Of a stretch of 64,000 nucleotides of DNA, positions 13,266 through 43,816 are shown piece by piece; positions within the stretch are counted from its first letter, which is position 1; each line of letters opens with the position of its first letter. Made by a program: the position numbers and the translations under genes. The notes beneath the pieces are model-generated. The model worked only from the letters and a program-made list of their open reading frames with translations. It searched no databases and was not told where the DNA came from. The stretch comes from a virus (lineage: Duplodnaviria; Heunggongvirae; Uroviricota; Caudoviricetes). The stretch lies in the IMG/VR virus record IMGVR_UViG_3300023371_000080, one strand, 5' to 3'.

Positions 13266-13563
13266 TAGAAACTTCCTCCGTAGTCAAATCATTTTGTACT
13301 GTTTCGTCCTGCTTTAACTGTACAGAAACAATCTCCATAACCCTTTTAATTGCTCGTTCAAAGTCTCTATGGCTCGACTTCATGCCGTCCTTGAGATTTT
13401 TCTCAATTGCCCCAGCAACTGCTGCCGAGACAAAATAAGCCCCAATCTTCATACCATCGGTGCGAGTGCTTTCGAACCACTTCTCGATTAGTTCTCGCAA
13501 CTCTTCTTCGGACGCTCCCTTAATTTCGGAAACTACTTCTGACATTTTTGCGTTTTCTTCCAT
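13255..13563 (-). CDS. hypothetical acidic protein
   Basis: 102-aa ORF directly downstream of promoter module. Confidence 0.45.
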   Translation of the reverse strand: MEENAKMSEVVSEIKGASEEELRELIEKWFESTRTDGMKIGAYFVSAAVAGAIEKNLKDGMKSSHRDFERAIKRVMEIVSVQLKQDETVQNDLTTEEVSNDE

Positions 13564-13609
13564 GTTAAAATCCTTTCTATTTTACTGTACAATCATTTTG
13601 TACTGTTAA

Positions 13610-13642
13610 TATTATATCACTTTTATTTTATTTGTCAATACT
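13610..13642 (-). promoter_or_regulatory. sigma70-type promoter (TTGACA -35 / TATAAT -10) with upstream TTGTAAA direct repeats at 13657-13676
   Basis: minus strand reads TTGACAAATAAAATAAAAGTGATATAAT; leader ACAAAATGATT follows. Confidence 0.55.
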
Positions 13643-13669
13643 TTCATTGGCTAGTTTACAATTTATTTA

Positions 13670-13819
13670 CAATTCTGCATCCATAATCTTCTTGAGCTCT
13701 TCAAGGATGTTCTCGTGGCTACCCCTTGAAAGAACCCACTTGCCATCGATATATAAGTCATAGACGTGATCCTCACGCAGTTTAATAGTAAAATTGTGTA
13801 CTGTTCTGTTTGCCATAAT
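13670..13819 (-). CDS. small hypothetical protein (49 aa)
   Basis: MANRTVHNFTIKLREDHVYDLYIDGKWVLSRGSHENILEELKKIMDAEL*; ATG 2 nt after ligA stop. Confidence 0.3.
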
Positions 13820-15914: not shown

Positions 15915-16202
15915 TTAATCTTCATCGCCAAGTTCCATTGGCGTATAACATTCTTCACAAATTCTTTCACCGTTTGTTAGTTTGATATAGTCGCTAGTTA
16001 TCCATTCGCCGCAAACATTACACTCGTGAGCCTCAACGTATGCGCCTCCGCAATAAGGACAGCAATCATATTCTTCGTAAGGACCATAATCCAATCCGTG
16101 AGTGTTTACATAATGCTCGGGCTCTTCAAAAACGCGAAAACATTCTTTGCATACTAACATGATTTTCCTCCAATCATTTTGCTTTGTATATATTATACTC
16201 AT
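15915..16202 (-). CDS. zinc-ribbon hypothetical protein
   Basis: Four CxxC pairs (CKEC, CPYC, CNVC, CEEC). Confidence 0.5.
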   Translation of the reverse strand: MSIIYTKQNDWRKIMLVCKECFRVFEEPEHYVNTHGLDYGPYEEYDCCPYCGGAYVEAHECNVCGEWITSDYIKLTNGERICEECYTPMELGDED

Positions 16203-16221
16203 TTTTTTAAATTTGTCAAGG
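16190..16221 (-). promoter_or_regulatory. sigma70-type promoter
   Basis: minus strand TTGACA (16214-16219) - 16 nt - TATAAT (16192-16197). Confidence 0.5.
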
Positions 16222-16275
16222 GTATAATGAAATTATTTACAATTCGTTCAAAAAAGAGTGCTAAACAGCACCCTC

Positions 16276-17055: not shown

Positions 17056-17095
17056 AAAACCACATCCTTATATAATCATTTTGTCTTGTTGACAT

Positions 17096-17132
17096 TTTTG
17101 ATTATATCATAGGATGTGGATTTGTGTCAATT
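17096..17132 (-). promoter_or_regulatory. promoter for endolysin gene (TTGACA / extended TGaTATAAT)
   Basis: minus strand TTGACACAAATCCACATCCTATGATATAAT then leader ACAAAATGATTA. Confidence 0.5.
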
Positions 17133-17565
17133 ATTTTGTATTGTGAATTTTCTTAGCCTGCTCTCCGAGGAAATTTGCATCTGATTCAAACCAGATAGAA
17201 TAGTAGTCGGGAAGTTCATTTAAATCCTTTACTTCACTCATAACTATCAATTTACGATACCACCATCTTACTACGGAGGGGATGCCGATGATAAACGGGA
17301 AGAGTGGACCGAAGATGCAACTCTGAATGGCGTGGCCATGTTCGTGCCACTTGGTAAATTCGCTATCCCTGTCATCTATCACCATTACGGGCCCAAAGCT
17401 TACGCCGCCCCAATTGTGACCGACATTGAAGCACATGCAATTACCCCAACGCTTAGGTTTGTGACTAGTAATAACGAGGGCGAGAGCAACGATGGCTCCA
17501 ATGATTGTCATAATGGAGCCCCAAGTGAACGACAAAAGATAGAATAAAAATTTGTTGCGCATCAT
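17131..17565 (-). CDS. small membrane protein with HExxH motif (possible holin-position protein or membrane metalloprotein)
   Basis: Start reset to MMRNKF (17565) because the ORF-track N-terminus overlaps tRNA-Gln; TM helix FLFYLLSFTWGSIMTIIGAIVALALVI; HEHGH motif. Confidence 0.4.
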   Translation of the reverse strand: MMRNKFLFYLLSFTWGSIMTIIGAIVALALVITSHKPKRWGNCMCFNVGHNWGGVSFGPVMVIDDRDSEFTKWHEHGHAIQSCIFGPLFPFIIGIPSVVRWWYRKLIVMSEVKDLNELPDYYSIWFESDANFLGEQAKKIHNTK

Positions 17566-19224: not shown

Positions 19225-19275
19225 TGAGACGTCTAAAACCTACTGCAATAGGAAACTTCGTCTCAAGTTTTTTTA
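19225..19275. repeat. conserved nested-hairpin element E2 immediately 5' of tRNA-Leu(CAA)
   Basis: GAGACGTCTAAAACC-TACTGCAATAGGA-AACTTCGTCTC AAGTTTTTTT. Confidence 0.45.
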
Positions 19276-19368
19276 ACTTTTGGAGGTCTGACGTGCAAAC
19301 AAATCTCGCTACGTGCTCTCCCTAACAGCGTACAACTCCTTACGAGCGTGGGTGTTGCCCTCTTACGA

Positions 19369-19412
19369 GGTCGCAGGGTTACTGGTTTGGAGAGCGCCTA
19401 CTACTAACCCTT
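19369..19412 (+). terminator. terminator-like hairpin + T-run on plus strand
   Basis: GGGTTA..(loop)..TAACCC followed by TTTTTCG. Confidence 0.3.
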
Positions 19413-19425
19413 TTTCGATAGTTAT

Positions 19426-19923
19426 TTATGACAAGAAATTTTTCGACTTATATTTATGTATGTTCTTGCCCTTATAATTGTCGGTTAAGGCATGACAATT
19501 AGGACATAATAATTGTAAATTTTCTATATTGTTATTTTCTTTATTTCCATCTTTATGATGTACTTCAAGTGGTATAGGAACATTATTCCATAATGTATTT
19601 TTACAACACTCACAAATATGTTCTTTAAGTCCCTCGCGAAGAAGTTTCTTTCTTATTTTGTTGGTTTGAACATTTTTACTTTTAATATATTCATTAAATG
19701 GAACATATCTATCACTTTCATAAGTTTTTCCAGATAACCAACCTTGTCCAGTGAAATGAGATATATCGAGATTTAATTCTTGAATCATTGATTGCAAAGT
19801 TATATAACTAGAACCGCACTTACTGTATCCTAATTTTTGAGATAATGTTGACCAACTATAACTTTCTTTTACATATTGTTCAATCTCTTGTCTGGTGTAA
19901 TTTCTCCATTTTGCTTTCTTCAT
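19426..19923 (-). CDS. HNH homing endonuclease inserted in tRNA island
   Basis: HNH motif EVHHKDGNKENNNIENLQLLCPNCHA; 165 aa. Confidence 0.8.
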   Translation of the reverse strand: MKKAKWRNYTRQEIEQYVKESYSWSTLSQKLGYSKCGSSYITLQSMIQELNLDISHFTGQGWLSGKTYESDRYVPFNEYIKSKNVQTNKIRKKLLREGLKEHICECCKNTLWNNVPIPLEVHHKDGNKENNNIENLQLLCPNCHALTDNYKGKNIHKYKSKNFLS

Positions 19924-20010
19924 ATGATACCCTCTTCAATATAATTTAAAGAGTAATTTTTCAGGTATCTTTTATCGCATCTTTTATAGAAAAACTACTG
20001 CCTTTCGGCT

Positions 20011-20160
20011 GGTAGGGCGAGAGGGATTCGAACCCTCAAAACACGGATTTTTGGTGGAAGACCCAAGAATTGAACTCAGACCTCGTTACTAGATTATTGT
20101 GCTTCCGTTACACCAATCTCCCAAGTCCGCTGTCTCTGCCAGTTTGACTACCGCCCCGTT
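20011..20160 (-). tRNA. tRNA-like fragments (canonical T-arm/acceptor 3' half GAGGGTTCGAATCCCTCTCGCCCTACCA plus upstream D-arm-like and CCACCA-ending segment); possibly degenerate or intron/insert-containing tRNA
   Basis: read from rc; no clean single cloverleaf could be built by hand. Confidence 0.25.
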
Positions 20161-20321
20161 TTGTTTTGTTTGATTGAGCCATCGGACTTCCACCGATGGG
20201 ATGTGTGGTGAGCTTCGTGTTTGCAACCACTTCTCACGGTCTTTTTAATCCATCCACTTGCGACCAACATTTTAATTAATTTACACACATTTTTCATATC
20301 TTGTACTTTTAAGAGATTTTC

Positions 20322-20400
20322 TTTTCGGTCATCCTCAGAAGATTCGAACTCCATCTCACCCTGCTATTGGGTGAGCTCTACCCTTGAGCTATCGTTGGAC
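20322..20400 (-). tRNA. tRNA-like segment with canonical D-arm (TAGCTCAAGGGTAGAGC) and anticodon stem CACCC/GGGTG but aberrant T-arm (possible pseudo-tRNA)
   Basis: rc of ggtcatcctcagaagattcgaactccatctcaccctgctattgggtgagctctacccttgagctatcgttggac. Confidence 0.25.
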
Positions 20401-20519
20401 TAATCTCTGCCACCCATTTCAGAGGTGTACGGTCTCTTAAGAAATGGTTCGTACTTGTGGCATACTTAATATGGCTTTGTACTCACTACTCAATCATTTT
20501 GTCTTGTTTCTGTTGTGCC

Positions 20520-20553
20520 TATATTATAGCACAACTTTTTCGTTTTGTCAATA
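20520..20553 (-). promoter_or_regulatory. strong promoter module upstream of the tRNA island (TTGACA -17- extended TGCTATAAT) with TTTACAAT repeats at 20561-20580
   Basis: minus strand TTGACAAAACGAAAAAGTTGTGCTATAAT; no protein gene downstream before the tRNAs. Confidence 0.5.
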
Positions 20554-20587
20554 CCTTTTCGTAATCGTTTACAATCTGTTTACAATT

Positions 20588-20832: not shown

Positions 20833-20866
20833 AATATTATATCATAATCATTCTGTTTTGTCAATA
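20833..20866 (-). promoter_or_regulatory. sigma70-type promoter
   Basis: minus strand TTGACA (20859-20864) -17- TATAAT (20836-20841). Confidence 0.5.
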
Positions 20867-22628: not shown

Positions 22629-23846
22629 TTAATTTCCAATCTCAATCAAATACTTAATAGTCATCTGGTCTTCCTTATACACTACAATCTCATCATTTCG
22701 AAGCATACCTCTATCGGCGTGTGCATGTAGGCAGTTTGCTCCCTGCTTAAACTGTTGTAACTTATTATAATCAAGGTTATAATACTTGCTGTCAAAATTG
22801 TACACATCATAAGGCGTTCCATAAGCCACATCAAAGATTGCCATATAAGCAGTGTTGTTACCGCCGTGAGCCCAATAAGAACCAGAGAGCGAGGTATAAC
22901 CAATACTCTTTGCACACTTGGGGGCGTAATACACTCCGTACCCAAACATCTTTCCTGTAATTACGGCATTAGTAGGTCTAAGTACTAAGCCTGTCTTAAT
23001 AATAGACCAGAAATTCTCACTACGACTGCCATGGAACAGAAGTCTAGTGTCCTTGATGTCATTCTCCTTAACAAACTTATCAAAACGCTCCTGAGTCTTC
23101 AGATTGGTAACTCTCCAAGCCTTTTTAAACTTATCAGCGGATTCTTTCATCAAAGTCTTAATTAGGGCAATATCATCTTTTGTAGTTTCTTCCATAACAA
23201 GACCAAGCTCTTCGAGAATGGTCTGCTGTTTCTTTTCGGTTGTGGTAACAGACTCAATCTCTGGCTTCACATAAATCTGTCCACGCATTACATCAAGAAG
23301 ATCTTGCTCCTTGGTGATAATCTTTGAAAAATCTTCTGTCTTATTTGCCAGACAATAACGTACATCACTCATTCTTCTAGGAATAACTGTAAACAAGTTA
23401 AGCAGATTGGCATTAAACGCATCAACGGTTATGCTATTATTGGCGAGCTCATCAATAATCTTCTGTGCTGCATCCACCATATCCTGAGTAACAGCAGATG
23501 CTTTTACAGTATAGTTCTTGTTAATAGTCTCACGGGCAAGACTCTGAAGCTTATCCACAATTGCTTTTATGGCTGCGTTCTCAATGTCCTTGTATGGGCT
23601 TTCAGGATTGGTAGAGGAAACTTCCTCCACCAAGTCCTTCTTAAGATCAGTTACATCCTGGTAACCCTTTTTGAGTTTTGATTTGATTTGTGAATCCCAT
23701 TTAGACATAGGATAATATGCTGTTGTTTTAGTTGCATCTACTCTGCCGTATTCAACACGGAACTGATTGCCTTCTGGAAAAAGATTATAGTACTTATTAT
23801 TATTTGCCGTAGTTACCATAATCAAATAAGTAGGTCTTACTTCCAT
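22629..23846 (-). CDS. poly(ADP-ribose) polymerase-like protein (WGR domain + PARP catalytic domain, H-Y-E type)
   Basis: N-term KYYNLFPEGNQFRVEYGRVDA (WGR-like); catalytic LLFHGSRSENFWSIIKTGL, GKMFGYGVYYA, NDEIVVY matching PARP1 LLWHGSR/GYMFGKGIYFA/YNEYIVY. Confidence 0.75.
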   Translation of the reverse strand: MEVRPTYLIMVTTANNNKYYNLFPEGNQFRVEYGRVDATKTTAYYPMSKWDSQIKSKLKKGYQDVTDLKKDLVEEVSSTNPESPYKDIENAAIKAIVDKLQSLARETINKNYTVKASAVTQDMVDAAQKIIDELANNSITVDAFNANLLNLFTVIPRRMSDVRYCLANKTEDFSKIITKEQDLLDVMRGQIYVKPEIESVTTTEKKQQTILEELGLVMEETTKDDIALIKTLMKESADKFKKAWRVTNLKTQERFDKFVKENDIKDTRLLFHGSRSENFWSIIKTGLVLRPTNAVITGKMFGYGVYYAPKCAKSIGYTSLSGSYWAHGGNNTAYMAIFDVAYGTPYDVYNFDSKYYNLDYNKLQQFKQGANCLHAHADRGMLRNDEIVVYKEDQMTIKYLIEIGN

Positions 23847-27328: not shown

Positions 27329-27974
27329 TCTTCTTCATCTCCTCTGCTCTTACAATGGCCTCTGCCATCTCCTGGATTCGCTTCTCTCTTTCCATAGCAC
27401 GCTTCTTCGCCCAATGTGCCTTCACCTTCTGATAATTCTTTTCGGCCTTTGCCTTCTTTCGAGCTTCCTCTTCTGCTCTCTTCTTCTTGTCTGCTTCTGC
27501 CTTGTCGTAAAACTTAGTCGCATAAGAAAGCAACTTGCTAAGAACGGCTGTGCCTTCCTTACCAATCATTTCCTTGACAATACAACGAAGAAGTCCGTCC
27601 TCAAAGAAGTAGGGATCGTTACCCTGGACGGTCGCCGTCTGAGTGTCACCGTTTACAAAAGTCATCTTGATGGTGTTTTCGTTAAACACGCCGATAGACT
27701 TGATTGCAGGAATGAGATCCTGGCTGCCATCAAAGAAACCGTCCTTGTAGTATCGTGCAACAATTCGACCAAACTCAACTTCAAGCGACGAACGCTGGTC
27801 AGGTCTGACCTCAGGCTTCTTAGTTGCCTCTTCTATTGCAGAGGTTATATTGGAAAGTGAGTTGGAAGTTACAACCTCATTGACGAAATTCCAACAAGGC
27901 TCGCCGTCGTAAGTGTAAGTTACATTGCCATTATGGCCCGCTTTAATTGTCATTTTCTTTTTCTCCTTAATCAT
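27321..27974 (-). CDS. hypothetical protein with K/E/A-rich C-terminal helix
   Basis: 217-aa first gene of the operon downstream of promoter 27986..28019. Confidence 0.45.
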   Translation of the reverse strand: MIKEKKKMTIKAGHNGNVTYTYDGEPCWNFVNEVVTSNSLSNITSAIEEATKKPEVRPDQRSSLEVEFGRIVARYYKDGFFDGSQDLIPAIKSIGVFNENTIKMTFVNGDTQTATVQGNDPYFFEDGLLRCIVKEMIGKEGTAVLSKLLSYATKFYDKAEADKKKRAEEEARKKAKAEKNYQKVKAHWAKKRAMEREKRIQEMAEAIVRAEEMKKNV

Positions 27975-27985
27975 TTCGTTGTGTG

Positions 27986-28019
27986 CATATTATAGCACAG
28001 TTTCTTTTATTTGTCAATA
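27986..28019 (-). promoter_or_regulatory. sigma70-type promoter with extended -10 and TTTACA(T)T repeats at 28028-28047
   Basis: minus strand TTGACAAATAAAAGAAACTGTGCTATAAT. Confidence 0.55.
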
Positions 28020-28041
28020 GACTTTGTGTATCGTTTACATT

Positions 28042-28782
28042 TTATTTACAATCAGGCTTAAATGTCGGTATTGGATTTAATTTGAATAAATTCTTCTGGT
28101 GAAGGTGATCAATTTTTGCCTTTGCTACTTCATCTTCGCATACACCAGTGCGAATATATTTATTCAATACTTCATAGGTAAACCCAAAGTTATCCTCGTC
28201 AGTTTTGCCACAGAGACCGTCTGAAGGTGTCTTGTGAGTCAACTCATATGGAAGTCCACAGGCATCGCCAATAGCAACCACTTCATCAGAAGTAAAGTTT
28301 AGTATGGGCATTAAATCTGCTACATTATCGCCCCACCTGGTGGAATAACCTATATATGCTTCTGAGGCATTATCTGTTCCAACAACACGTCCATTTACAC
28401 TTTGAGATATGGCATAAAGCGTTGCCATACGAATACGAGGAGGAAGATTTATGGTTGTCTGCTTGCTAATTTCAATATCCGTCGGAAACTGATTGTCAAT
28501 ACCAACAACAGCATCCCAAATATTCATAGTATAACTTTTAATCCCAAGACATTGAATAAGTTTATTAGAATCATCGATATCAGGCTGTACACCACAGGGC
28601 ATCTTTACACCGATTACTCTGTCCTTGCCAAGAGCTTCTACGCAAAGCGCAGCTACAACGCTTGAGTCTTTACCACCACTAATACCAATTACAGCATTAC
28701 AACCTTTTCCATTCTGTTCAAACCACCCTCTAATCCAAGCGACAATTCTATCTTTAATCTCTATCGCATTAAAATTATTCAT
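28042..28782 (-). CDS. nadE: NH3-dependent NAD+ synthetase
   Basis: PP-loop GISGGKDSSVVAALC; start set to MNNFNAIE with GGGGAGA RBS. Confidence 0.8.
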   Translation of the reverse strand: MNNFNAIEIKDRIVAWIRGWFEQNGKGCNAVIGISGGKDSSVVAALCVEALGKDRVIGVKMPCGVQPDIDDSNKLIQCLGIKSYTMNIWDAVVGIDNQFPTDIEISKQTTINLPPRIRMATLYAISQSVNGRVVGTDNASEAYIGYSTRWGDNVADLMPILNFTSDEVVAIGDACGLPYELTHKTPSDGLCGKTDEDNFGFTYEVLNKYIRTGVCEDEVAKAKIDHLHQKNLFKLNPIPTFKPDCK

Positions 28783-29182
28783 GTGTAATCTCCCCATTTT
28801 CAATTTTAGTAATTAATTTATCCAACATTCTATATACAGAAGGCAAGCCACCTCTATCATCAATATAAGCATTTGCATATGTTTTGCGCCCACCAAAAGA
28901 TATAGAACTGTCACAGTTAATACCTTTATATTTAATGCCTACATTTTCCATATACTCCTTGATTATTGGATGCTGCGCTTCGCCATTTCCTGTTAAAATA
29001 ACAACCTCTGAATAAGGCTCCCAACGTTTGAGGAGCGTAATAACATCACTATAAGAACGACCAAGTTTATGAAAATCATAGATGGTATCATCGAAGTCTA
29101 CGCAAAAGATGAGTTTGCCATACTTCTTGAATTCATCTTCAAGTCTTTGATAGCAATTTTCTTCAGAAAGATAAAAATCCAT
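28775..29182 (-). CDS. small HAD-like hydrolase
   Basis: FCVDFDDTIYDF (DxDxT) motif; 135 aa; overlapping start/stop with neighbours. Confidence 0.4.
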   Translation of the reverse strand: MDFYLSEENCYQRLEDEFKKYGKLIFCVDFDDTIYDFHKLGRSYSDVITLLKRWEPYSEVVILTGNGEAQHPIIKEYMENVGIKYKGINCDSSISFGGRKTYANAYIDDRGGLPSVYRMLDKLITKIENGEITHE

Positions 29183-30660
29183 TAAAAATTACCTCCGTGC
29201 AATCTATCTCTAATTTCTGCAAGAGTCTGCTCTTTAGTCATTACTCCATCTTTGAATATGGTGACTAAATGATTCTGATAATCATATTTTGCTTCATCCC
29301 ATGTAGCACCATCTATATAAACAAGTGCTTCTTTCTCTCGACTCCATCTAACGGAACAACATCCCTTCTGCGACTTCTTAAAACCACCATCTTTAGGATT
29401 CTTGAATATCGGATATGGCTTACCGTCAATCTCACAATAAGTCGCCTTGATGCAAGAACTAAAAGTATCTCTTGTGAAAGGCTTCAGAATACCATCTTCC
29501 TCAACACACTGGAACGAGAACGAACCAACACCAAGAGCAACATTGGAACAAGCAAATCCATTTTCCATAAGAATTTGATAAATCTGTTCGCAACGCTGGA
29601 TAGTAATACTGTCGCCATAAATTGCTTTCACATGAGGATTAAGCACTTTATATCCCTTACTATTAATAGTACCACCAAAGATATCCCAAAGTTTAAAAAC
29701 GGTTTTGGTTACAACCTCAACACAGTCACCAGAGTCACCACGCATAAGCATGCAACCATTGTGTGCAAGGATTTCTTCCTTAAGTCTAGGAAGAATATTG
29801 TCAATTACATTCCAATAATCATAAGAGTCAAGTACAGCAGAAAAACTTGTGTTAGGGTAAATTTCTGTAAGCAGTCTTCTAAGAAGAGTTTCCTCATCGC
29901 CATCAACGGCATAGTTACTGCACATTACAGAATGCTCAGTAGAAGGCGAACCAAAAGCCACAGGTTCTTTTGTACAATCACAGTTATAATTTGCCTCAAG
30001 GTAAGGAATTGTAGGAACAGTTGCCGTATTCAAGAAGGATAGACACCAACCAGCTCCCGCCTTTTCAGCAGATTGTAGACATTCTTCACCTCTAAAGTCG
30101 AATGCACCAAGTGCTCTTGCTCTCGGAATATTGTCATCACAAGTGAGGTCATAATACTTGTTGACAATTTCTCTATATGTATAACCAACAGTAGCAGCAA
30201 GCATTGGATGCCATATCTCAGCAGAAATAAGGGATTCTAAACTCTGAGGCAACCACGCAAAATCAGGGTGAGTGTTTGTAATACCAAACATCGGCACATG
30301 CATAGGTACAAGCGTTCCTTCGGGAAGTGCTACAATTTCAATAGGAAGATAGCCAAGCTTGTGAAGATGTTCAATTTTATCAATTTTATATGTGTCCTTG
30401 CCAAGAGTTGCATCCATAACTCTCTTATATTCAGAGATTACTTCATCAAAAGACTTGTTAAAGAATTCGTTGTTAAAATAATCAATAAGATAGGTCTTAA
30501 TGAATCCCTGAAGTCCAAACATTACCACCTTGTCCCATCTCTTTACTCTGCTCATGCGAGGAGTAAAGTAAGATACGGACTTAGTAATGCCCTTGGGGAG
30601 CATTTCGGCATGGACAGCCTTATAGAAATCAATTAACAACATAGGATTTGTTCTTCTCAT
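29182..30660 (-). CDS. nadV: nicotinamide phosphoribosyltransferase family protein (NAMPT/NadV-like; alternatively Namat-like NAD-forming transferase)
   Basis: N-terminal LLIDFYKAVH (cf. NAMPT DSYK), MLMRGDSGD phosphoribosyl-binding region; 492 aa. Confidence 0.7.
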   Translation of the reverse strand: MRRTNPMLLIDFYKAVHAEMLPKGITKSVSYFTPRMSRVKRWDKVVMFGLQGFIKTYLIDYFNNEFFNKSFDEVISEYKRVMDATLGKDTYKIDKIEHLHKLGYLPIEIVALPEGTLVPMHVPMFGITNTHPDFAWLPQSLESLISAEIWHPMLAATVGYTYREIVNKYYDLTCDDNIPRARALGAFDFRGEECLQSAEKAGAGWCLSFLNTATVPTIPYLEANYNCDCTKEPVAFGSPSTEHSVMCSNYAVDGDEETLLRRLLTEIYPNTSFSAVLDSYDYWNVIDNILPRLKEEILAHNGCMLMRGDSGDCVEVVTKTVFKLWDIFGGTINSKGYKVLNPHVKAIYGDSITIQRCEQIYQILMENGFACSNVALGVGSFSFQCVEEDGILKPFTRDTFSSCIKATYCEIDGKPYPIFKNPKDGGFKKSQKGCCSVRWSREKEALVYIDGATWDEAKYDYQNHLVTIFKDGVMTKEQTLAEIRDRLHGGNF

Positions 30661-31463
30661 AATTCAAATACCTCAATCTTTTCGTGTTCCTTTGTAAAAA
30701 TACTGTTAGTCGTATAAACTCTTTCAATGAAACCGCTTGTAAGAAGTTCGCCTTCGAGGATAGTGTTTTCACAATGAGTTATATAAAGATATATGTTCTT
30801 AGCACCAGCCTCTTTGAGTGCTTTAGCAGAATGATAGAAAGTGCCACCACGAGAACAAATGTCGTCAATAATTAAAACATCTCTATCTTTTACAACATCT
30901 TTGTTCATTAGTTCAAGACCAAGAATCTTTCCTGTTTCCCAATCACGCTTTTTAATTCCGAAAGCATAAGCACCCTTTACATAATCTGTGCCACGCTTCA
31001 TTGCGCCTTCATCTGGATAAAAAGCAACCAAGCCATTTTTATTTGGGATAGCTTCAATTGTCCTAGTAATCATTTCCAGTGGATGTTTAACCTTAACATT
31101 GTTAATAAGCGCTGCACAAACATTGCTGTGCGGGTCAAGAATTCTCACTTCAGTAAAATTGAGACCGTTAATCACATCTGCGAAATGCTTCAGAGTAAAA
31201 AATTCATTAGAGCTTTTTACTCTGTCCATACGAGCGTGTGGACAATAAGGCATTTCAAGAATCATATCTTGTCTATCAAAATGTTTGCGAATGCAAATTA
31301 TAGTAAACAGTTCGGCGTCGTTTTCATAGTGCCAAGTGAGTATCTTTGGAGATTTGCCAAACCAATCCAAACTAAAAATAGGCTCTGTATAATCGGTTTC
31401 AATTCTTAAAGAGTTGTCTGGAAAACGAGCCTGTGTTATAAGCTTATCATTTATTTTAATCAT
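30657..31463 (-). CDS. ribose-phosphate pyrophosphokinase-like protein (PRPP synthetase family; possibly ADP-ribose pyrophosphokinase)
   Basis: PRPP-binding PRTase motif VLIIDDICSRGGT; start set to MIKIND (GGAGA RBS) to abut pncA stop. Confidence 0.6.
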   Translation of the reverse strand: MIKINDKLITQARFPDNSLRIETDYTEPIFSLDWFGKSPKILTWHYENDAELFTIICIRKHFDRQDMILEMPYCPHARMDRVKSSNEFFTLKHFADVINGLNFTEVRILDPHSNVCAALINNVKVKHPLEMITRTIEAIPNKNGLVAFYPDEGAMKRGTDYVKGAYAFGIKKRDWETGKILGLELMNKDVVKDRDVLIIDDICSRGGTFYHSAKALKEAGAKNIYLYITHCENTILEGELLTSGFIERVYTTNSIFTKEHEKIEVFEL

Positions 31464-31465
31464 AA

Positions 31466-31975
31466 TTATTCTCCAATCACATTTATCTGGCACATTTTCA
31501 TTGTGGTAAGTGCCGCCTGATGAGTCTCAGGAGTTACACCAGCACAACAACTTGCATCTACTGTAATGCTGATTTCGGGGAACTGAGCCTTGAGAATAAG
31601 TGCATTAGACACTACGCAAATGTCGGTGCAAAGACCTACGAGTTCAATTTCTTCAAAATCAAACAAGTCGTTCCAATATGTGCAACCGAAGGTGTATTTA
31701 TCGACGTGAACACATTCTGGAGAATTAATTTCCTTTGTTATAAGCCAGCCCTCGGTGCCACGAATACAGTGTTCGACAGGCAAGTGCTTGCCCTCGTTGG
31801 TGGTAAGATAATATGCTGAATGAGTATCTCTTGTAAAGATAATCTCATCTCCACGAGCCTTATACTCTTCAATCTTCCTCTTTACATTTGGCACAATAGC
31901 CTGCGCCTCCTTAGTTCCGAGGGCGCCGTCAATAAAATCATTCTGCATGTCAATTACAATAAGCGTTCTTTTCAT
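31466..31975 (-). CDS. pncA: isochorismatase-family nicotinamidase (PncA-like)
   Basis: LIVIDMQNDF, catalytic-Cys region VGLCTDICV; 169 aa. Confidence 0.6.
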   Translation of the reverse strand: MKRTLIVIDMQNDFIDGALGTKEAQAIVPNVKRKIEEYKARGDEIIFTRDTHSAYYLTTNEGKHLPVEHCIRGTEGWLITKEINSPECVHVDKYTFGCTYWNDLFDFEEIELVGLCTDICVVSNALILKAQFPEISITVDASCCAGVTPETHQAALTTMKMCQINVIGE

Positions 31976-32014
31976 TTGTTTTCTCCTTTGATTTTTAAAT
32001 CATTTTGTTGTGTC

Positions 32015-32048
32015 TGTATTTTATCATATATTTTTAAATTTGTCAATA
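32015..32048 (-). promoter_or_regulatory. promoter of NAD operon with TTTACATT repeats at 32058-32080
   Basis: minus strand TTGACA (32041-32046) -17- TAAAAT; leader AACAAAATGATTTAAAAATCAAAGGAG. Confidence 0.45.
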
Positions 32049-32143
32049 ACTTACGCTTCTTATTTACATTTTATTTACATTTGCACCTCACAGTCCTCAA
32101 AAGGTGCAAATATTGCACTTTTAAAGGGTGCTGTAGGTGCAAA

Positions 32144-35100: not shown

Positions 35101-35359
35101 ATGACTTATCATTGATATCATCAACATAATATGCCTCGACTCCATAAATACACTTTAGGCCATTCTCTTGACACAATGTATATGCCTCGAAGATGTTTCC
35201 TTGGTATCCATGCTCGGTTGTAAAATATGTAGTGTGTCCTAATTCTTTAGCTCTGTTGACATAATCAATAGGCTTTGATACGCAGTCAAGCGTTCTTAGG
35301 TTTGAGTACATAGTATGTTTATGATAGTTGTTGTATCTCATTCTTTCACTCCTAATCAT
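32144..35359 (-). CDS. dnaE: DNA polymerase III alpha subunit (DnaE-like, PHP + polymerase core)
   Basis: N-terminal PHP motif YNNYHKHTMYS..EHG, 1071 aa; exact start among M1/M7 uncertain. Confidence 0.8.
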   Translation of the reverse strand: MIRSERMRYNNYHKHTMYSNLRTLDCVSKPIDYVNRAKELGHTTYFTTEHGYQGNIFEAYTLCQENGLKCIYGVEAYYVDDINDKSSRAMYHIILVAMTENARRQINRIMSTANTNGYYYKPRIDLNLLLSLPGDEVVVTTACVAGRMFKPKSFEKTKEIIGYEKVRVYDSGPGYIDTTGHEEERPIYKTIAVGEDSWYTDFLVPVKEHFGANFYLEVQSHADHDQAEYNKKIMEVHRKYNIPIIHANDSHYIYPEDAKYRDLFLKAKGIVYEEESGFCLDYPDSDEIYRRYKIQGILTEDEVTEALQNTLVFDNAEGITIDKEFKIPKITEGDSNKVLKKLINEGWAKERSNVPKERWSEYIEQIKYEYKIIEDCGMADYFILDHYIVDRAVKEYDAILTKSGRGSAVSFYVNKLLGLTEVDRISAPITLYPTRFMSAERILSSRSLPDIDLNWADVTPVIQASKDLLGEDGIYYMIAYKPLQESSAFRLWCKAHDMHISEYDEVAKNLETYENDEKWKDLIEGSKKFRGVVESVAPSPCSFLLSNDKISEMVGLVKVGDVTCCCLDGYNCDVYKFLKNDYLTVTVYQLISDVYKLLGKPMDDINTLVANCDDKVWDVYAKGLTTTINQADSDYDKQILKKYKPRNLSELSAYVAAIRPGFASLLNNFVDRMPYTTGVKELDDILKDSFHYLMYQESIMKYLVWLGVEEKGTYDIIKKIAKKKFKEEELNELKSQLRAGWVKNVGREEGFNETWQVVEDAAHYSFNASHSLSVAIDSLYGAYLKATYPNEYFTVALSLYSDDLDRTAKLTAEMPYFGITLNPIKFRHSRANYNMEKETNSIYKGLSSLKYMNSEVSEQLYSMKDQKFDSFVDLLSVFPGNSRQREILTRLNYFSEFGGSLKLLKIAELYDKYNGKKVLKKEKLDLPVEIIEKYAKSSTEKQYRFESEGMTTMLSELCSMVPDQELPILSQIEAQKEFLGYIDLVDPTKPTKAVVLDINTKYTPKLSLYRLYDGQTVNAKLKKKDYESNPLASGMIIDYRTTKKPAWKKDGENWVQDYSREDVWLTSYTIE

Positions 35360-35367
35360 TTTGTTGT

Positions 35368-35402
35368 GTAAAGTATAGCACCAAAGTTTTAATTTGTCAA
35401 GA
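35368..35402 (-). promoter_or_regulatory. promoter (TTGACA / extended TGCTATACT) with TTTACAAT repeats at 35408-35430
   Basis: minus strand TTGACAAATTAAAACTTTGGTGCTATACT. Confidence 0.5.
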
Positions 35403-35434
35403 TACTTCGGTGCTAATTTACAATTTATTTACAA

Positions 35435-36040
35435 TTAAATCTCGTCCTCTTCTTCGGCCGAGCCCTCATTCAAGAATGCCGTAAACTCGTCATACTTCCG
35501 CTGCTTAATTTTTCCAGGTTTCCCCTTGATATTGTAGGTAAGATACTTGTCGAAGAGCTCCTTGATTTCGCGCTGGGTATTTTTTCTTCCTTGCTGGAGC
35601 CCATCTCTGTAGCCTTTATTCGACTTGGCGTCACCGAGTGCCGCCTTGCCCTCGCCTTGGCTACCAGTTGTCTTATTACGCAGTTGAAATCCTTGGTCAG
35701 CGTAACACTTAATCCAATACTGCTCTCTGCCATCAAGCTCGTCTTCTGGGCAATGGCAGATTATCTCAACGTGGTAACCATAGGGATTGGTTTCTTCATC
35801 ATAAAACTTATGTTTCTTAATACTACAGTCGATATGTTGATATCCACTAAGATGTTCTGCAAGTCTCTTTAATAAGTTCTTGGCTTGCCCAACATAAGCA
35901 AACTTAAAACCGTTCTCGTCTGTACGATAAAATACATAAAGGCCTGAATCTTCCGTTGCAATAGGACACACCTTCCGTATCTTATCTTCATTAGCTTTTC
36001 TTATAGCCATTATCTGTCTGTAATTCGTAGCCATAACCAA
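35435..36040 (-). CDS. GIY-YIG nuclease domain protein (homing-endonuclease-like)
   Basis: GLYVFYR (GIY) .. YVGQAKNLLKRLAEH (YIG) .. E; 201 aa. Confidence 0.6.
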   Translation of the reverse strand: MVMATNYRQIMAIRKANEDKIRKVCPIATEDSGLYVFYRTDENGFKFAYVGQAKNLLKRLAEHLSGYQHIDCSIKKHKFYDEETNPYGYHVEIICHCPEDELDGREQYWIKCYADQGFQLRNKTTGSQGEGKAALGDAKSNKGYRDGLQQGRKNTQREIKELFDKYLTYNIKGKPGKIKQRKYDEFTAFLNEGSAEEEDEI

Positions 36041-36045
36041 TCTCC

Positions 36046-37647
36046 TTAATCATTTTGTTGCGTATATTCATCAATTGTAAGTTGCAAAAATTTGTTTTTC
36101 CCATAGAACGGATTTGCAAGCACGCCTACCGCCACAATCTCACCGTCATTACCAAGAGTTTGCCAATCCATACAGTTCCACTTAACAACAATAACTCCAG
36201 TCTCATTATCAATAATCTTAAGGTGTTTCTTGGTTGAGAACGTACTAACCTCATAATCGTTGGTTCTTACCAATACCTTAACTGGAGGAAAACCCTCCCC
36301 GCTAATACGATTGATTGCGTTCAGTTGCTTCACCAAATTCTCATTAATCTGACTCGGAGCAAGTTCTATATCTGCCTCTATATTAACAGAGAACTCAACA
36401 TCTTTTAGTTCTTCCTCAATGACAGTCTTGAACTGCTCAAACTTATCTGCATCTATAAACGCACCCGCAGCATTGGGGTGTCCCTGGCAAAGACACAGTC
36501 CTGTACCATTTGCGATCTCAAGGAAGTTCTCGGTTCCCATACTTCTCATACTTCCCGCATATTGTTCATCTCGCTCTTTTAAAATAAATAGTGGCCTCTG
36601 ATACATTGCTAGAAGCTTATTTGCAATAAGCCCCGTGATTTCTGCATCCGTGTCATTGTCGAGCATAAAGAACATACACTTCCTATCGAGCTGTAACTCG
36701 CCCTGCTCAAGTAATCCATCAAGCAAATCTGCTACGACTTTATTCTGTTCTTCTCTGCAGTTTTTCAGATCCTTAACTAACTCGTCAATTTCATCCTCGT
36801 CTTCCGCAAGAAAAACATTCATTGCCTTTTCATTCTGATGCATTCTCATAGCAGCATTAACCAACGGTCCAATACTGAAACTGACCGACTGACTGTCAAA
36901 TGTGTAATTACCGACCATCTTCTGCACCATAGGATTTCTGAACTGTGCCAATCCTCGATATGCAATATATCTATTCTCTGGTTCCGCCATACTTGACATA
37001 TCTGCTATAAGTCCTATCGCTGCATATGCCCATAAATCATCACTATAATCAGTTAGATTTTGGTAATCGCAATATTGCACGAATTTAAGACAAACTCCCG
37101 CACCCGACAAGAACTCATTTGGATATCCGTTTGCCGAACTCACGAGCACAAAATCCAAATCTGCGTCAAATAATCTTTGCTCAGGTAAGTGATGGTCAAA
37201 TACCACAAGTTTTACGCCAGTGTCAAGAATTCGCTTGTAGACTTCAGGATCGTTGTTGAGAGAATCGACGATGATCATCACATCAACGCCATTAAGTAGC
37301 TTCAAATCAAAATCTTCGGCACCATGTTTCTTACCATCATTGATAACGCACTTAACATCCGCACCACACTTACGCAAATATCGTGTGATAATGGCATTGC
37401 TGCTACAACCATCTGCATCCACGTCTGCCAACACAAGGAACTTTTCTCCCATTGTAATGGCATCGTCTATAATCTGATATGCCTCGTCAAGTCCTTTTAA
37501 TTCTTCGAACGGTATCATATCATCTTCCGTTGGTTTGAGGAAGTCGGAAATATCCTCGATTCCTCTCGAATCCAATATCGCCTCAATTATTTCAAAATCA
37601 TCTTCCATCTGCCTGCCATCGATCTTGGCAGTAAGTTGTTTTATCAA
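36046..37647 (-). CDS. DHH/DHHA1 phosphoesterase, RecJ-like ssDNA exonuclease
   Basis: Motif I LVLADVDADG, motif III VVFDHH, DHHA1 GHPNAAG. Confidence 0.7.
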   Translation of the reverse strand: MIKQLTAKIDGRQMEDDFEIIEAILDSRGIEDISDFLKPTEDDMIPFEELKGLDEAYQIIDDAITMGEKFLVLADVDADGCSSNAIITRYLRKCGADVKCVINDGKKHGAEDFDLKLLNGVDVMIIVDSLNNDPEVYKRILDTGVKLVVFDHHLPEQRLFDADLDFVLVSSANGYPNEFLSGAGVCLKFVQYCDYQNLTDYSDDLWAYAAIGLIADMSSMAEPENRYIAYRGLAQFRNPMVQKMVGNYTFDSQSVSFSIGPLVNAAMRMHQNEKAMNVFLAEDEDEIDELVKDLKNCREEQNKVVADLLDGLLEQGELQLDRKCMFFMLDNDTDAEITGLIANKLLAMYQRPLFILKERDEQYAGSMRSMGTENFLEIANGTGLCLCQGHPNAAGAFIDADKFEQFKTVIEEELKDVEFSVNIEADIELAPSQINENLVKQLNAINRISGEGFPPVKVLVRTNDYEVSTFSTKKHLKIIDNETGVIVVKWNCMDWQTLGNDGEIVAVGVLANPFYGKNKFLQLTIDEYTQQND

Positions 37648-40929: not shown

Positions 40930-41981
40930 ATTTCGTCCTCTTCTTCTAAATTTTCTATTGGTTCTATTTCGTGTTTAAGTATATACTCAAACTCCACCTT
41001 GGTGTCATCACAAGGTGCTGATTTATTATCAAGAGTTAAATTATCTTCCCAATTCCAATATCGGATCTCCAACTGCCTCATAGTACAAAATGTCTTGAGC
41101 AAATCTGCATTCCTTTTGGTGTTATCAAGCGGCAAACTCTTGTCTAACATAAAAGTGATTCGCTTTGGATTCAATGAAATGAGCAGCTTTGCCTGGGTTG
41201 GGCTCAATGAGTTACTACCAAGAGCAACCACATTGTTATAACCCCAAGAGTCTAATATAAGCACCGATTTCTCACTCTCTACCACAAGGATCTCATTCTC
41301 ATATAGCGAACTGTAATTTTCTGAGTACCCGAAAAGAGTTTGAGACATTGGACCATTCTCAAGGTATAGATACTTAGGCTCAAACTCTTCTGGTATCCCA
41401 TTAAGTCTGCCCTTTATCGCCATGATTTCTCCCGTAGAAGTTCTGATAGGCAGTGTAATTCTTTGGCTCAGAACATCGTAACCTATGCCCCATTTTCGTT
41501 GAGTACTTAGCGAAATTCCATCCTTAAGCCAAAGAGTATTTGGCGTATTGCCGTATTGCTCAAGTATCTCTTCTGGGTAAGTAGTTACGGCTATTTCGCC
41601 ATTAGAACGATTTAGACCGTCATATATCCCCCCAAAGAGCCCCAACTTGCGTTTGTAGTTATATATGGAATCAAGATGTAATTCCTGTTTGATAACATTC
41701 ATTACATCTTTAAAGGAAATGTTCTTGCTTTTGACAAGGTAGTTGATTAGGTCTAACGAGAGGTTTCGCTCATAGTCTTTCACGAATAAATTCTCATTGT
41801 CTTGTAATCTAATCACCACCGCAGTCGGATTCATTCCGTCCTCAAAAGCACACCTGATTTCTCGGTGACCTCTGCGTATTTTAGAAAAACCAAAGGTGTC
41901 GAGGATATGCTCTATGGACTCTGGTTGCTCTAATAAACGTTCTTTTACTTCTTTGAACACATCTCTGACACCTCCAATCAT
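40926..41981 (-). CDS. possible DNA primase (Toprim-like region)
   Basis: ILVVESEKSVLILDSWGYNNVVALGSNSLS and FMLDKSLPLDNTKRNAD resemble Toprim E..DxD segments; located with helicase/polymerase genes. Confidence 0.35.
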   Translation of the reverse strand: MIGGVRDVFKEVKERLLEQPESIEHILDTFGFSKIRRGHREIRCAFEDGMNPTAVVIRLQDNENLFVKDYERNLSLDLINYLVKSKNISFKDVMNVIKQELHLDSIYNYKRKLGLFGGIYDGLNRSNGEIAVTTYPEEILEQYGNTPNTLWLKDGISLSTQRKWGIGYDVLSQRITLPIRTSTGEIMAIKGRLNGIPEEFEPKYLYLENGPMSQTLFGYSENYSSLYENEILVVESEKSVLILDSWGYNNVVALGSNSLSPTQAKLLISLNPKRITFMLDKSLPLDNTKRNADLLKTFCTMRQLEIRYWNWEDNLTLDNKSAPCDDTKVEFEYILKHEIEPIENLEEEDEI

Positions 41982-41998
41982 TTCGTATTGTTAATTAA

Positions 41999-43011: not shown

Positions 43012-43023
43012 ATTAAATTCTCC

Positions 43024-43494: not shown

Positions 43495-43816
43495 ACAACA
43501 AGTCCCTCCAATCTACTTCGTCATCATTTTTATCTGGCAAATCAAAGCTCCAATCGCTCCAATCAACCTTATTCATATCGACATCAATTTTTTCTAAAAA
43601 CTCGTACATATCAAAATTGTCCATAGTAGTAGAACCTGTAATATAACCATCGCTTTCTCTGATACCCCAAGATTCTTCCGAATAATCAATCCCTAATTTT
43701 TCTCCCAATTCTGAGTGGCGTCGGATTGCCTCAATCTGGTCGTTATCAAGGTGCTTTTTAGCAATCAAAAAACTACTGCTTGATGAATTAGTTACAAAGT
43801 CGTGTCTAATTTTCAT
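43484..43816 (-). CDS. member 2 of tandem paralog family (MKIRHDFVTNSSSSSFLI..), acidic
   Basis: shared N-terminal motif. Confidence 0.5.
   Translation of the reverse strand: MKIRHDFVTNSSSSSFLIAKKHLDNDQIEAIRRHSELGEKLGIDYSEESWGIRESDGYITGSTTMDNFDMYEFLEKIDVDMNKVDWSDWSFDLPDKNDDEVDWRDLLYED

Follow-up and report, generated by a model that had tools for sequence, protein, structure and literature searches.

A repeated promoter cassette in the early arm of an SPbeta-like phage, with a WalR-type upstream repeat and a putative operator of an integrase-fold repressor

MrpR and SroF are master repressors of the SPbeta type. They have an integrase fold, have lost recombination, and clamp an asymmetric operator as monomers, and their binding sites are spread across the phage genome (PMC10516654; bioRxiv 10.1101/2025.11.27.690993). 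Here we describe a promoter cassette that is repeated through 64,000 nucleotides of DNA from a phage of the Caudoviricetes (IMG/VR record IMGVR_UViG_3300023371_000080; hereafter the window, with positions counted from its first nucleotide), and a short leader box in that cassette that is most likely, by analogy with SPbeta, the operator of an MrpR/SroF-like master repressor of this phage. The window is the early, replication and lysogeny-control arm of the phage.

Other described systems also bear on the cassette. The stoperators of mycobacteriophage L5, which have been shown to block elongation, are asymmetric and oriented with transcription, and they occur in promoters as well as in short gaps between genes (PMC9283540). 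The start-associated sequences (SAS) of Cluster K mycobacteriophages contain the Shine-Dalgarno sequence (SD) and lie 3-7 bp before the start codon (PMC3203893). For the upstream part of the cassette, the closest described site is that of the response regulator WalR. Its consensus, TGTWAH-N5-TGTWAH, comes from Bacillus subtilis and is quoted in PMC9210968. In Staphylococcus aureus, WalR sites upstream of the -35 region are associated with activation, and sites within or downstream of the promoter with repression (PMC10746227).

We propose that the cassette found here has two inputs: around a host sigma-A core promoter it would combine a site for a host response regulator and an operator for the MrpR/SroF-like repressor. 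We consider this reading probable, though by no great measure. Its parts differ in strength. The operator role of the box is well supported by analogy, from repressor homology and the likeness to SPbeta, and the host response-regulator input is one that we infer.

The promoter cassette and its core

We found that one promoter layout recurs through the window; the repeated layout is real and is common to the whole phage family. At P13.6 (13591-13672, minus strand), the double repeat TTGTAAATAAATTGTAAA (hexamers at 13655-13671) is followed after 16 nt by TTGACA (13633-13638), after another 16 nt by TATAAT preceded by TGa (-10 at 13611-13616), 9 nt later by the leader box ACAAAATGATT (13591-13601), and 17 nt after that by the SD AAAGGA and an ATG. 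With at most one mismatch, ACAAAATGATT occurred 30 times in the window where 5.0 were expected; none of 100 shuffles reached 30, and 28 of the 30 matches were on the minus strand. The double repeat occurred 9 times (0.7 expected), on the minus strand only. Perfect TTGACA-N16-18-TATAAT sequences were present 11 times on the minus strand (ten at 13-55 kb, plus one at 409) and 0 times on the plus strand. The initial annotation had read these sites as promoters, and both their sequence and these counts support promoters of the host sigma-70 type.

The initial annotation had also listed eleven minus-strand promoters of one layout. Seven of these (at 13.6, 20.5, 28.0, 32.0, 35.4, 45.3 and 50.8 kb) proved to be full modules, and those at 16.2, 17.1, 20.85 and 54.7 kb are variants. 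One more promoter, at 52.6 kb, was not among the eleven and has two boxes inverted around its -35. The spacing is tighter than first described. The hexamer starts lie exactly 34 and 23 nt 5' of the -35 in every full module, and the gap from repeat to -35, given earlier as 15-30 bp, is 16 nt in 7 of 7. The paired site that had been placed at about -60/-80 with repeats ~10 bp apart is indeed upstream, with a measured period of 11 bp and a position of about -68 to -52. The distance from -10 to box, given as 8-15 nt, ranges from 7 to 20 nt, with a mode of 9.

The same cassette is present in relatives. Motif scans of IMG/VR yielded 46 loci of related phages (loci are numbered here with the prefix L), and those that align to the window, at 68-86% nucleotide identity, carry it. 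A consensus set of 42 distinct family promoters with standard spacing, chosen by presence of the repeat, gave TTGTAAAtAAAtTGTAAA-N16-TTGACAAa-N-tttgTGcTATaaTAt..aCA. Its features are the TGn, TTGACAAA, and C(-1)A(+1), in which position -1 is a conserved C and position +1 a purine. Where the gap has its usual length of 9 nt, +4 of the predicted transcript is the first position of the box. We predict that the cores are near-consensus host-type sigma-A promoters (TTGACA-17-TGnTATAAT), strong ones of the classical kind. Host sigma-A RNA polymerase would read the cassette through the near-consensus -35 and extended -10 and start at the predicted C(-1)A(+1).

The remaining six full modules are all on the minus strand. 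P20.5 (20492-20585) has hexamers at 20568-20584, -35 at 20546-20551, -10 at 20523-20528 and box at 20492-20502; the next sequence is non-coding or tRNA-like and has no SD. P28.0 (27969-28051) has hexamers at 28034-28050, -35 at 28012-28017, -10 at 27989-27994 and the box ACGAAATGATT at 27969-27979. P32.0 (31998-32080), in front of the genes for salvage of nicotinamide adenine dinucleotide (NAD), has hexamers at 32063-32079, -35 at 32041-32046, -10 at 32018-32023 and box at 31998-32008. P35.4 (35354-35434) is the promoter of the DnaE-type polymerase gene, with hexamers at 35417-35433, -35 at 35395-35400, -10 at 35372-35377 and box at 35354-35364. P45.3 (45287-45369) has hexamers at 45352-45368, -35 at 45330-45335, -10 at 45307-45312 and box at 45287-45297. 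P50.8 (50733-50823), whose box lies 17 nt 3' of the -10, has hexamers at 50806-50822, -35 at 50784-50789, -10 at 50761-50766 and box at 50733-50743.

The DnaE promoter has an additional feature. An inverted repeat, AGCACCGAAGT ... ACTTTGGTGCT (35377-35414, minus strand), brackets its -35, and the 3' arm enters the extended -10. Pairing is kept in relatives through changes on both arms (L080, AGCTCCGAA / TTCGGAGCT; other variants in L067 and L092), and the other modules lack this inverted repeat. A regulator specific to this promoter may bind here, or read-through RNA may form a hairpin.

The four variants, also on the minus strand, each depart from the layout in their own way. P16.2 (16172-16242) has a single hexamer (16236-16241), -35 at 16214-16219, -10 at 16192-16197 and the box GCAAAATGATT at 16172-16182; a terminator-like hairpin lies directly upstream. 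P17.1 (17074-17139), the promoter of an amidase gene, is without the upstream repeat and has a variant box (17129-17139) over its -35 (17125-17130), -10 at 17101-17106, and a second box (17074-17084) at about +16. In P20.85 (20836-20864) the box ACAGAATGATT (20846-20856) is within the spacer between -35 and -10. P54.7 (54690-54751) has a single hexamer (54745-54750), box at 54717-54727, -35 at 54713-54718 and -10 at 54690-54695. Here the box is fused to the -35 as ACAAAATGATTGACA, with TT in common, and there is no box downstream. L031 has the same arrangement, as do L021 and L102 but for a changed -35 or box.

The upstream tandem repeat

We found that the repeat matches the WalR consensus. 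The exact pattern TGTWAH-N5-TGTWAH occurred 7 times in the window (0.76 expected), and all 7 occurrences are the full modules. Among family promoters the repeat spans -69 to -52 and consists of a TGTAAA hexamer at about -68 and another at about -57, with a period of 11 bp and an invariant G in each. TGT and the A at the fifth position of the hexamer (A5) were invariant in the 42-promoter set, which was itself selected for the repeat, and changes fell at the W and H positions or outside the hexamer. A second, repeat-blind set of 55 distinct family promoters was gathered by -35, -10 and box alone. In 40 of these 55, both hexamers lay at exactly -68 and -57, and TGT and A5 were kept in about three quarters of the set. 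Of 67 cases, 55 had a gap of 16 nt between repeat and -35, and a minor cluster lay farther out by one helical turn. Because TGT and A5, including a G, are invariant and variation is at the W and H positions alone, the site looks to be read in the major groove rather than through a minor-groove contact of the C-terminal domain of the RNA polymerase alpha subunit (alpha-CTD).

From these features we infer that the repeat is a tandem head-to-tail site for a regulator of the OmpR/PhoB family, most likely one of the host and most simply WalR. The likeness to WalR boxes extends to the exact consensus, the 11-bp period, the invariant TGT, and the placement upstream of the -35, which is the activating position in S. 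aureus (PMC10746227). The sites differ in that they belong to phage promoters with near-consensus cores and keep one fixed register, with 16 nt between site and -35. The genes served here are for replication, NAD and tRNAs rather than for the cell wall. Since the repeat keeps one helical register 5' of the -35, a response regulator bound to it, in this class-I-type position, would be predicted to activate through contact with polymerase. If host WalR or a relative reads the repeat, then the replication genes of the phage would be coupled to an essential growth signal that the host cannot easily lose. On the practical side, the activator site, consensus core and operator would make a compact, portable promoter design for Clostridia-type hosts.

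The identical 18-mer, with the 16-nt gap and TTGACA, is also present in two Bacillota contigs of metagenome-assembled genomes (MAGs) that are not homologous to this phage (L222, 4523-4562, and L223, 1764-1803). The bacterial copies precede a chromosomal DHFR, FolC, DHPS (folA-folC-folP) operon and the gene for a 995-aa HD-domain protein (Acutalibacteraceae contig). These two loci alone came from a genome scan for the exact pattern, which is too narrow to define a host regulon.

Several points weigh against a host WalR-type input. The promoters are already near consensus, and the need for an activator is not obvious. The WalR consensus is that of B. subtilis, and the WalR of the host may be absent or may differ in specificity. 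Other OmpR-family regulators fit the repeat equally; an example is PhoP of B. subtilis, whose sequence TT(A/T/C)ACA-N5 matches the opposite strand. The further ~108 kb of the genome may also encode a phage factor that would fit. Finally, the bacterial matches are just two, and the pattern is AT-rich.

It is possible that the repeat is instead read by a phage-encoded factor, either another activator or a free-standing alpha-CTD-like protein, or that it is a displaced UP element for the host alpha-CTD. We find this doubtful. The repeat array is specific to this phage family, and none was found on scanning SPbeta and phiCD211. The family also encodes a conserved 132-aa protein with an RNA_pol_A_CTD domain (60232-60630, minus strand), and the promoters have a weakly conserved AAA at -43 to -41 that resembles a proximal UP subsite. 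However, an UP element is an A/T-rich tract at about -40 to -60, without conserved G or C, and alpha-CTD reads such A-tracts in the minor groove. The invariant TGT, with a G in each hexamer, is unlike that kind of site, and the repeat lies beyond the canonical UP position. Thus, of the two suggestions in the initial annotation, the paired activator site fits the locked hexamers well, as a tandem response-regulator site, and the UP element fits less well. An element that is identical, at the same spacing, in two bacterial contigs unrelated to this phage also speaks against a factor encoded by the phage. No Trans_reg_C protein or strong helix-turn-helix (HTH) protein was found among the window genes or the open reading frames (ORFs) of the family loci (135 representatives outside the window), and a search of these 135 for OmpR-type and XRE-type regulators found none among the 25 families listed of 47. 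Moreover, the repeat is unchanged in the lineage whose box is altered (see below). Binding by a host response regulator is thus the reading that we prefer for the repeat.

The 132-aa protein was examined on its own account. It scored 34.1 bits against the Pfam model for the RNA polymerase alpha C-terminal domain (gathering score 23.8). In 18 homologues sampled from 108 clusters, all of ~132 aa, the equivalents of Arg265 and Gly296 (E. coli numbering) were invariant and that of Asn268 nearly so. The protein was found in this phage group only and in no GenBank phage, and conserved extensions of its own are present at both the N and the C terminus. The protein could act as a mimic or a competitor of the host alpha-CTD, and it may be part of the same circuit as the cassette. 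Of possible interest beside response-regulator-type boxes, L229 encodes a free-standing receiver-domain protein at 1-36, 5' of the YonO region (PF20274 cREC_REC); its 98 aa are truncated by the end of the locus. We also considered a TcdR-type -35 (TTTACA) on the opposite strand and rejected it; no -10 follows it.

The leader box and the candidate repressor

The conserved unit of the box is an asymmetric 16-nt sequence, ACAnnACAAAATGATT, with nothing conserved further upstream (116 distinct exact family copies). We found that it occupies a few preferred positions relative to the promoter. The box is at +4 in 23 family promoters, and further copies are spread from +1 to +15. In 10 family promoters it is at -44, with TT in common with the -35; in 4 it is at -27, inside the spacer; and in 2 it is at -22, with ATT in common with TATAAT. 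Altogether, 16 family promoters hold a box upstream of their own predicted start and outside their RNA, and several of these have no box in the transcript at all. A repressor bound at +4, or over the -35, spacer or -10, would block polymerase.

These registers are those of the SPBRE of SPbeta. We read the SPBRE consensus from NC_001884 as CAAATACAAAWAATATGTATA, always co-oriented with the downstream gene. SPBREs are located in the spacer or -10 at yonP, yorE, yorM, yorZ and yosX, directly after the -10 and abutting the SD at yopV, yonX and yopM, and upstream of the -35 at aimR. The orientation of the box likewise tracks transcription. Even the single copy among plus-strand late genes is on the plus strand, and the only antisense exception in the window is one arm of an inverted pair at 52621-52647.

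The inverted pair is in the promoter of the candidate repressor gene (52610-52647), where it flanks the -35 (52633-52638; -10 at 52610-52615). It has the sequence ACAAAATGATT-GCAAT-AATCATTTTGT. Six related loci keep the arms, with a middle (a TTGnnn -35) of 6-8 nt. With such a pair across the -35 of its gene, the repressor would regulate itself; the pair is one of the differences from SPbeta.

The gene behind this promoter (51626-52573, minus strand) encodes a 315-aa MrpR/YopR/SroF-like protein with an integrase fold (CB and CAT domains), our candidate for the factor that binds the box. The protein carries the Pfam domain PF22823 MrpR_C_cat, as do all listed homologues; 635 homologues were found at E of 1e-5 or better. 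In the PDB, phmmer matched it to YopR, MrpR and SroF only (E 5e-6), and hhalign matched the family profile to SPbeta YopR with 91% probability (E 9e-7, 239 columns). An AlphaFold model (predicted local distance difference test score, pLDDT, 83) had as its top Foldseek matches 8A0A (MrpR), 8BJ6 (YopR) and 9RD5 (SroF-DNA), at E ~1e-10; true recombinases were at ~1e-4, six orders of magnitude weaker. Sequence and predicted structure thus identify the protein as a distant homologue of MrpR, YopR and SroF. Near the second catalytic Arg, hhalign placed QSSG of the family against VRSG of MrpR, a mapping that is unreliable at 23% identity, and the alignment ends before the C-terminal tyrosine.

One lineage has a variant box, ACAAAATGAA(T/A). 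The repressor of this lineage is 37% identical, compared to 50-87% for the others, and has changes in the conserved basic helix RRYRFLLRRL (residues 232-241), the predicted recognition helix. Box and repressor have both diverged in this single case, which is only suggestive. A scan for inverted pairs of the variant box (CAAAATGAA...TTCATTTTG) gave 65 loci, none of them encoding an MrpR-like gene.

The surroundings of the repressor gene also resemble those in SPbeta. The SPbeta repressor gene, encoding an integrase-fold protein of ~315-325 aa, is near a tyrosine-integrase gene (yopP is near yopR), and here the gene for a 328-aa tyrosine integrase is next to that for the candidate repressor. In the SPbeta family, the antirepressor Sar (YopT) is reported to be LexA-controlled and encoded close to the repressor gene on its downstream side. 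In a similar position here, two genes downstream of the repressor gene, there is an 85-aa ORF (50807-51064, minus strand) behind a promoter, TTGAAA-17-TATAAT (51107-51135, minus strand), that has a LexA/Cheo-like box, CGAACAAACATTCG, in its spacer (CGAACATTAGTTCG in relatives). The region from 50807 to 51256 looks like an SOS-controlled antirepressor module of the kind in SPbeta and phi3T. The 85-aa ORF and the neighboring 106-aa ORF had no match in the PDB, and a Sar-like identity was not confirmed; a single-sequence model of the 85-aa ORF reached a pLDDT of 45, too low to be of use. Between the repressor operon and P50.8 (50807-51256, minus strand) there is also a conserved hydrophobic mini-ORF of 29 codons, MKWERHSWAIVLGILVVIPLILIILANTA.

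The likeness to SPbeta extends to the genome. The genes for Sak4, helicase, RecJ-like protein and PolIII-alpha are in the same order as in SPbeta from yorG to yorL, and in L229 the gene for a YonO-like polymerase is followed by HU-like, YonJ_N and YonG_N genes. Given this gene order and the YonO-like RNA polymerase, the family is SPbeta-like, and we classify the phage as a predicted SPbeta-like temperate phage of ~172 kb with an uncultured Bacillota host. The host is probably of the Clostridia type, judging from the sigma-A promoters, the AGGAG SDs, the c-st- and phiCD211-like proteins, and the one exact motif match in an Acutalibacteraceae MAG. There are also differences from SPbeta. Box copies per genome, extrapolated from the stretches read (more than 20 in the 64-kb window, 7 in 22.8 kb of L229 and, among late genes, a single one in 9 kb of L225), are ~3-4 times those of SPbeta. 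The conserved core is ~16 nt, compared to 15-24 bp for SPBRE. SPbeta has no WalR-type repeat upstream, and its host is Bacillus rather than an uncultured Clostridia-like member of the Bacillota. No arbitrium genes were seen in the window.

Some of the evidence weighs against an SPbeta-type operator. The homology of the repressor is distant (23% identity to SPbeta YopR). The box and SPBRE have AATACAAA(A) in common, and a comparison of their position weight matrices was not above column-shuffled controls (p = 0.145); that is, the sequences are not significantly similar. Given the divergence of the repressor, a different operator specificity is to be expected. In addition, SPbeta has ~12 sites in 134 kb, all in promoter regions.

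In contrast, the leader box is separable from the promoter. In the window we found 11 or more gene boundaries with a box and no recognizable promoter, and 11 copies are in short gaps. Such promoterless copies, all on the minus strand, are at 60649-60659 (before the alpha-CTD-like gene), 59150-59160, 58416-58426, 51592-51602 (between the repressor gene and the 106-aa ORF), 50483-50493 and 6924-6934; and at 50281-50291 (overlapping the upstream stop codon), 49118-49128 (before a Sak4-like AAA_24 gene) and 41976-41986 (joined to the 45.3-kb box in L096), these three with one mismatch. Two more minus-strand copies are within genes. The copy at 36048-36058 is inside the 3' end of a DHH/RecJ-like gene, before a GIY-YIG gene, and that at 13287-13297 is inside the 3' end of a 102-aa gene, where it is kept in every orthologue despite diverged flanks. 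The leader motif had been said to occur more than 20 times, always before minus-strand start codons. This holds for nearly all copies, with some exceptions. Several one-mismatch matches, inside genes (e.g., 53166) or on the plus strand (29264, 43926), look like chance, and those at 57303 and 57977 are at the start codons of listed ORFs absent from the called genes.

Promoterless boxes invite comparison with the stoperators of Cluster A mycobacteriophages such as L5. Both systems have more than 20 asymmetric sites, an orientation linked to transcription, and a monomeric repressor (here, binding is predicted), and the distribution of the boxes is that of stoperators. However, L5 gp71 has two HTH-type domains where the candidate here has an integrase fold, the sequences and host phyla are unrelated, and no gp71-type repressor (HTH plus 'stoperator' domain) was found. 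Because the candidate repressor has an integrase fold, the resemblance would be one of possible mechanism and not of family membership. By this analogy, boxes without a promoter would act as orientation-dependent polar roadblocks, or they would silence weak internal starts. A roadblock role is speculative; the block of elongation was demonstrated for L5 and is a guess here. If both the two-input cassette and the roadblocks are real, an SroF-type repressor would gain a second, stoperator-like function. With the promoterless copies, it could be asked directly whether such a DNA clamp halts an elongating polymerase.

A rival reading is that the box acts in RNA, as an element of the 5' untranslated region or intercistronic space through which a factor of the host or the phage would control translation initiation, stability or processing. 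This is in line with the initial annotation, which had taken the leader for the context of a transcription start, a site of RNA processing or an operator of translation. At least half of the boxes have no recognizable promoter, most of these lie 0-19 nt before an SD, and two are inside coding 3' ends just before the next SD and are conserved there, a distribution that fits a role in RNA or translation too. Such a role is also in keeping with the sense orientation of all boxes except the antisense arm of the inverted pair, with the start of the box at +4 of the transcript, and with a resemblance to Cluster K SAS or to the targets of T4 RegA and RegB. Moreover, as the initial annotation had noted for the small genes at 55.9-57.2 kb, degenerate forms of the box (AAAAGAGTGATTT and similar) are present at 55.4-57.6 kb. 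The variants (…GTGATTTTAACGGAGG) before the small early genes (window 55.3-57.7 kb) merge into a pattern of TGATTTTAA and SD. In phiCD211 (L224, 62.8-105.9 kb), many intergenic gaps have a loose (A)TTTTAA(T) 3-10 nt before the SD; this TTTTAA-SD pattern stands alone there, and no box or repeat was found in the intergenic regions.

Nevertheless, we consider a role in RNA quite unlikely. The 16 family promoters with the box upstream of the start hold it at fixed registers in DNA that is not transcribed from them. The conserved inverted pair straddles a -35, that of the repressor gene, and the gene beside it encodes a protein homologous to a repressor whose known targets are such elements in DNA. 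In L013 the box is followed by a tRNA, and at 20.5 kb by the conserved non-coding stretch, neither with an SD. RNA folding of 20 leaders gave no shared structure, and the box was mostly unpaired. The box further differs from SAS. The two have in common an asymmetric, one-orientation repeat before many non-structural genes, conserved across subclusters before different genes, but the box itself contains no SD, is located 10-35 nt upstream rather than 3-7 bp from the start codon, and is also found in promoter cores and before non-coding RNA. A DNA operator explains all contexts of the box and an RNA element explains some of them, and this makes the RNA-centered view less likely. In a separate reading of the leaders, we considered a sigma-dependent pause at a -10-like hexamer in the box and rejected it, because no one hexamer register is kept in both natural variants, ACGAAATGATT and ACAAAGTGATT. 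Additional base pairing between the box and the 3' end of 16S rRNA was also rejected, since the order of elements is wrong with respect to the known Firmicute anti-SD, on which alone this was considered.

It is also conceivable that the YonO-like RNA polymerase of the phage uses the box as its promoter or loading element, with the host enzyme acting first and the phage enzyme later. The single-chain polymerase (PF05183) is encoded at 10001-12838 in L229 and 6769-9600 in L145, and was found in more than 120 clusters at at least 79% identity, on contigs of 150-170 kb. The promoter of YonO is undefined (PMC5467207), an asymmetric sense element of ~16 nt just 5' of SDs resembles promoters of the T7 type, and there are boxes in the late region too. 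We judge this very improbable for three reasons. YonO of SPbeta starts one long late operon at a single site (PMC5467207), not at dozens. Box density is highest in the early and replication arm and low among structural genes (the single copy in L225). The antisense arm and the registers in the spacer and -10 make little sense for a promoter. An operator of the integrase-fold repressor accommodates those registers. The YonO-like gene is itself behind a sigma-A promoter with a box, and is followed by ClpP, a ~1-kb tRNA array, and the HU-like and YonJ/YonG-like late genes.

If the box is an MrpR/SroF-like operator, the integrase-fold repressor system extends beyond the SPbeta phages of Bacillus to a large uncultured group with genomes of 150-172 kb, and the different operator and far larger number of sites would be natural variants for how the integrase fold reads DNA. 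A fuller picture would have a host WalR-type activator wired into most of the replication, NAD and tRNA promoters, the integrase-fold repressor at +4, further operator copies as roadblocks, and expression tied to a cell-wall growth signal. We offer this picture tentatively and, taken whole, regard it as unlikely.

Gene-block junctions and other features of the window

Comparison of the window with its relatives showed that homology often ends at boxes. Of 223 internal homology breakpoints, 36 were at most 15 nt from a box, in zones that make up 1.3% of the window. There were 1.8 breakpoints per site at boxes and 0.77 at gene starts without a box. Because gene boundaries without a box are also enriched for breakpoints, the excess at boxes is only ~2.3-fold. 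Individual cases are clear. L096 joins window position 45285 to 42008, from the 45.3-kb box to the 41.98-kb box, and is missing the 3.3-kb, six-gene block between them (42008-45285), which includes a SPASM-domain protein; L047 has ~560 nt in place of this block. L019 and L026 share the 35.4-kb promoter and box with the window and then have different genes, and the same promoter and box precede different genes in L008, L019, L026 and the window. Since every cassette ends in the same box, boxes are also junctions at which relatives have gained or lost gene blocks.

The early promoter and stem-loop (PeSL) cassettes of T4 are similar, in that regulatory motifs at gene boundaries coincide with junctions of insertion, deletion and replacement (PMC2839356, PMC4122927). 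They differ in that the PeSL consists of an early promoter with a stem-loop terminator; here no consistent hairpin was found, many of the junction boxes have no promoter, and the junction property alone is in common. That the boxes are mainly recombination junctions (for gene-block swaps, or as tyrosine-recombinase or integron-like sites) with no regulatory role of their own is scarcely credible, even with breakpoints exactly at boxes and an inverted pair with a 6-8 nt spacer, like a core recombination site, between two genes of the tyrosine-recombinase fold: boxless boundaries are breakpoint-enriched too, the fixed promoter registers call for a regulatory explanation, single boxes have no second arm, and the closest solved relatives of the neighboring protein are repressors without recombinase function.

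The window genes are nearly all on the minus strand. They include those for a DnaE-type polymerase, a DnaB-like helicase, a RecJ-like DHH protein, an NAD-dependent ligase, NrdD and Thy1, as well as an NAD-salvage cluster, a PARP-like protein, six tRNAs, a large serine recombinase and a TubZ-like tubulin. The same DNA is present in a 172,425-bp ENA contig (ERZ27248370 k141_2760514), where window position equals contig position + 1831, and inside a 341,764-bp JGI contig. The latter is about twice 172 kb and may be a dimer assembly of a circular genome. A megablast search of 8 kb against GenBank phages gave no match; the GenBank relatives (c-st, phiCD211 and Geobacillus E3) are recognizable at the protein level only.

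Downstream of P20.5, the region ~19250-20490 (minus strand) is conserved at the nucleotide level in L104 and has no Rfam family. Rfam searches of the whole window, with a permissive scan of 17-20.7 kb, found tRNAs only, and tRNA-like pieces in this region were called by ARAGORN only with relaxed settings or introns. A 68-aa ORF called at 20148-20354 may be spurious.

The region of the tubulin gene (769-1791, plus strand) is a plasmid-type partition module similar to that of Clostridium phage c-st. The gene is preceded by a small winged-helix ORF (507-767), and the module adjoins the large serine recombinase gene (1870-3852). A divergent 51-aa ribbon-helix-helix ORF (205-360, minus strand) is behind a perfect TTGACA-17-TATAAT (381-409).

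A protein with a PARP-type ADP-ribosyltransferase domain (22629-23846, minus strand) is encoded a few kb from a full NAD-salvage set (28042-31975, minus strand). This set comprises nicotinamidase-like and PRPP-synthetase-like proteins, NAMPT and NAD synthase, and relatives have NAPRTase, CoaE and cytidylyltransferase versions. Free-standing endonuclease genes are also present: a GIY-YIG gene (35435-36034, minus strand) lies by the polymerase promoter, and an HNH gene (19426-19923, minus strand) is in the tRNA region. The largest cluster of relative-specific genes is that of a GIY-YIG/NUMOD endonuclease, with 20 copies among the family loci.

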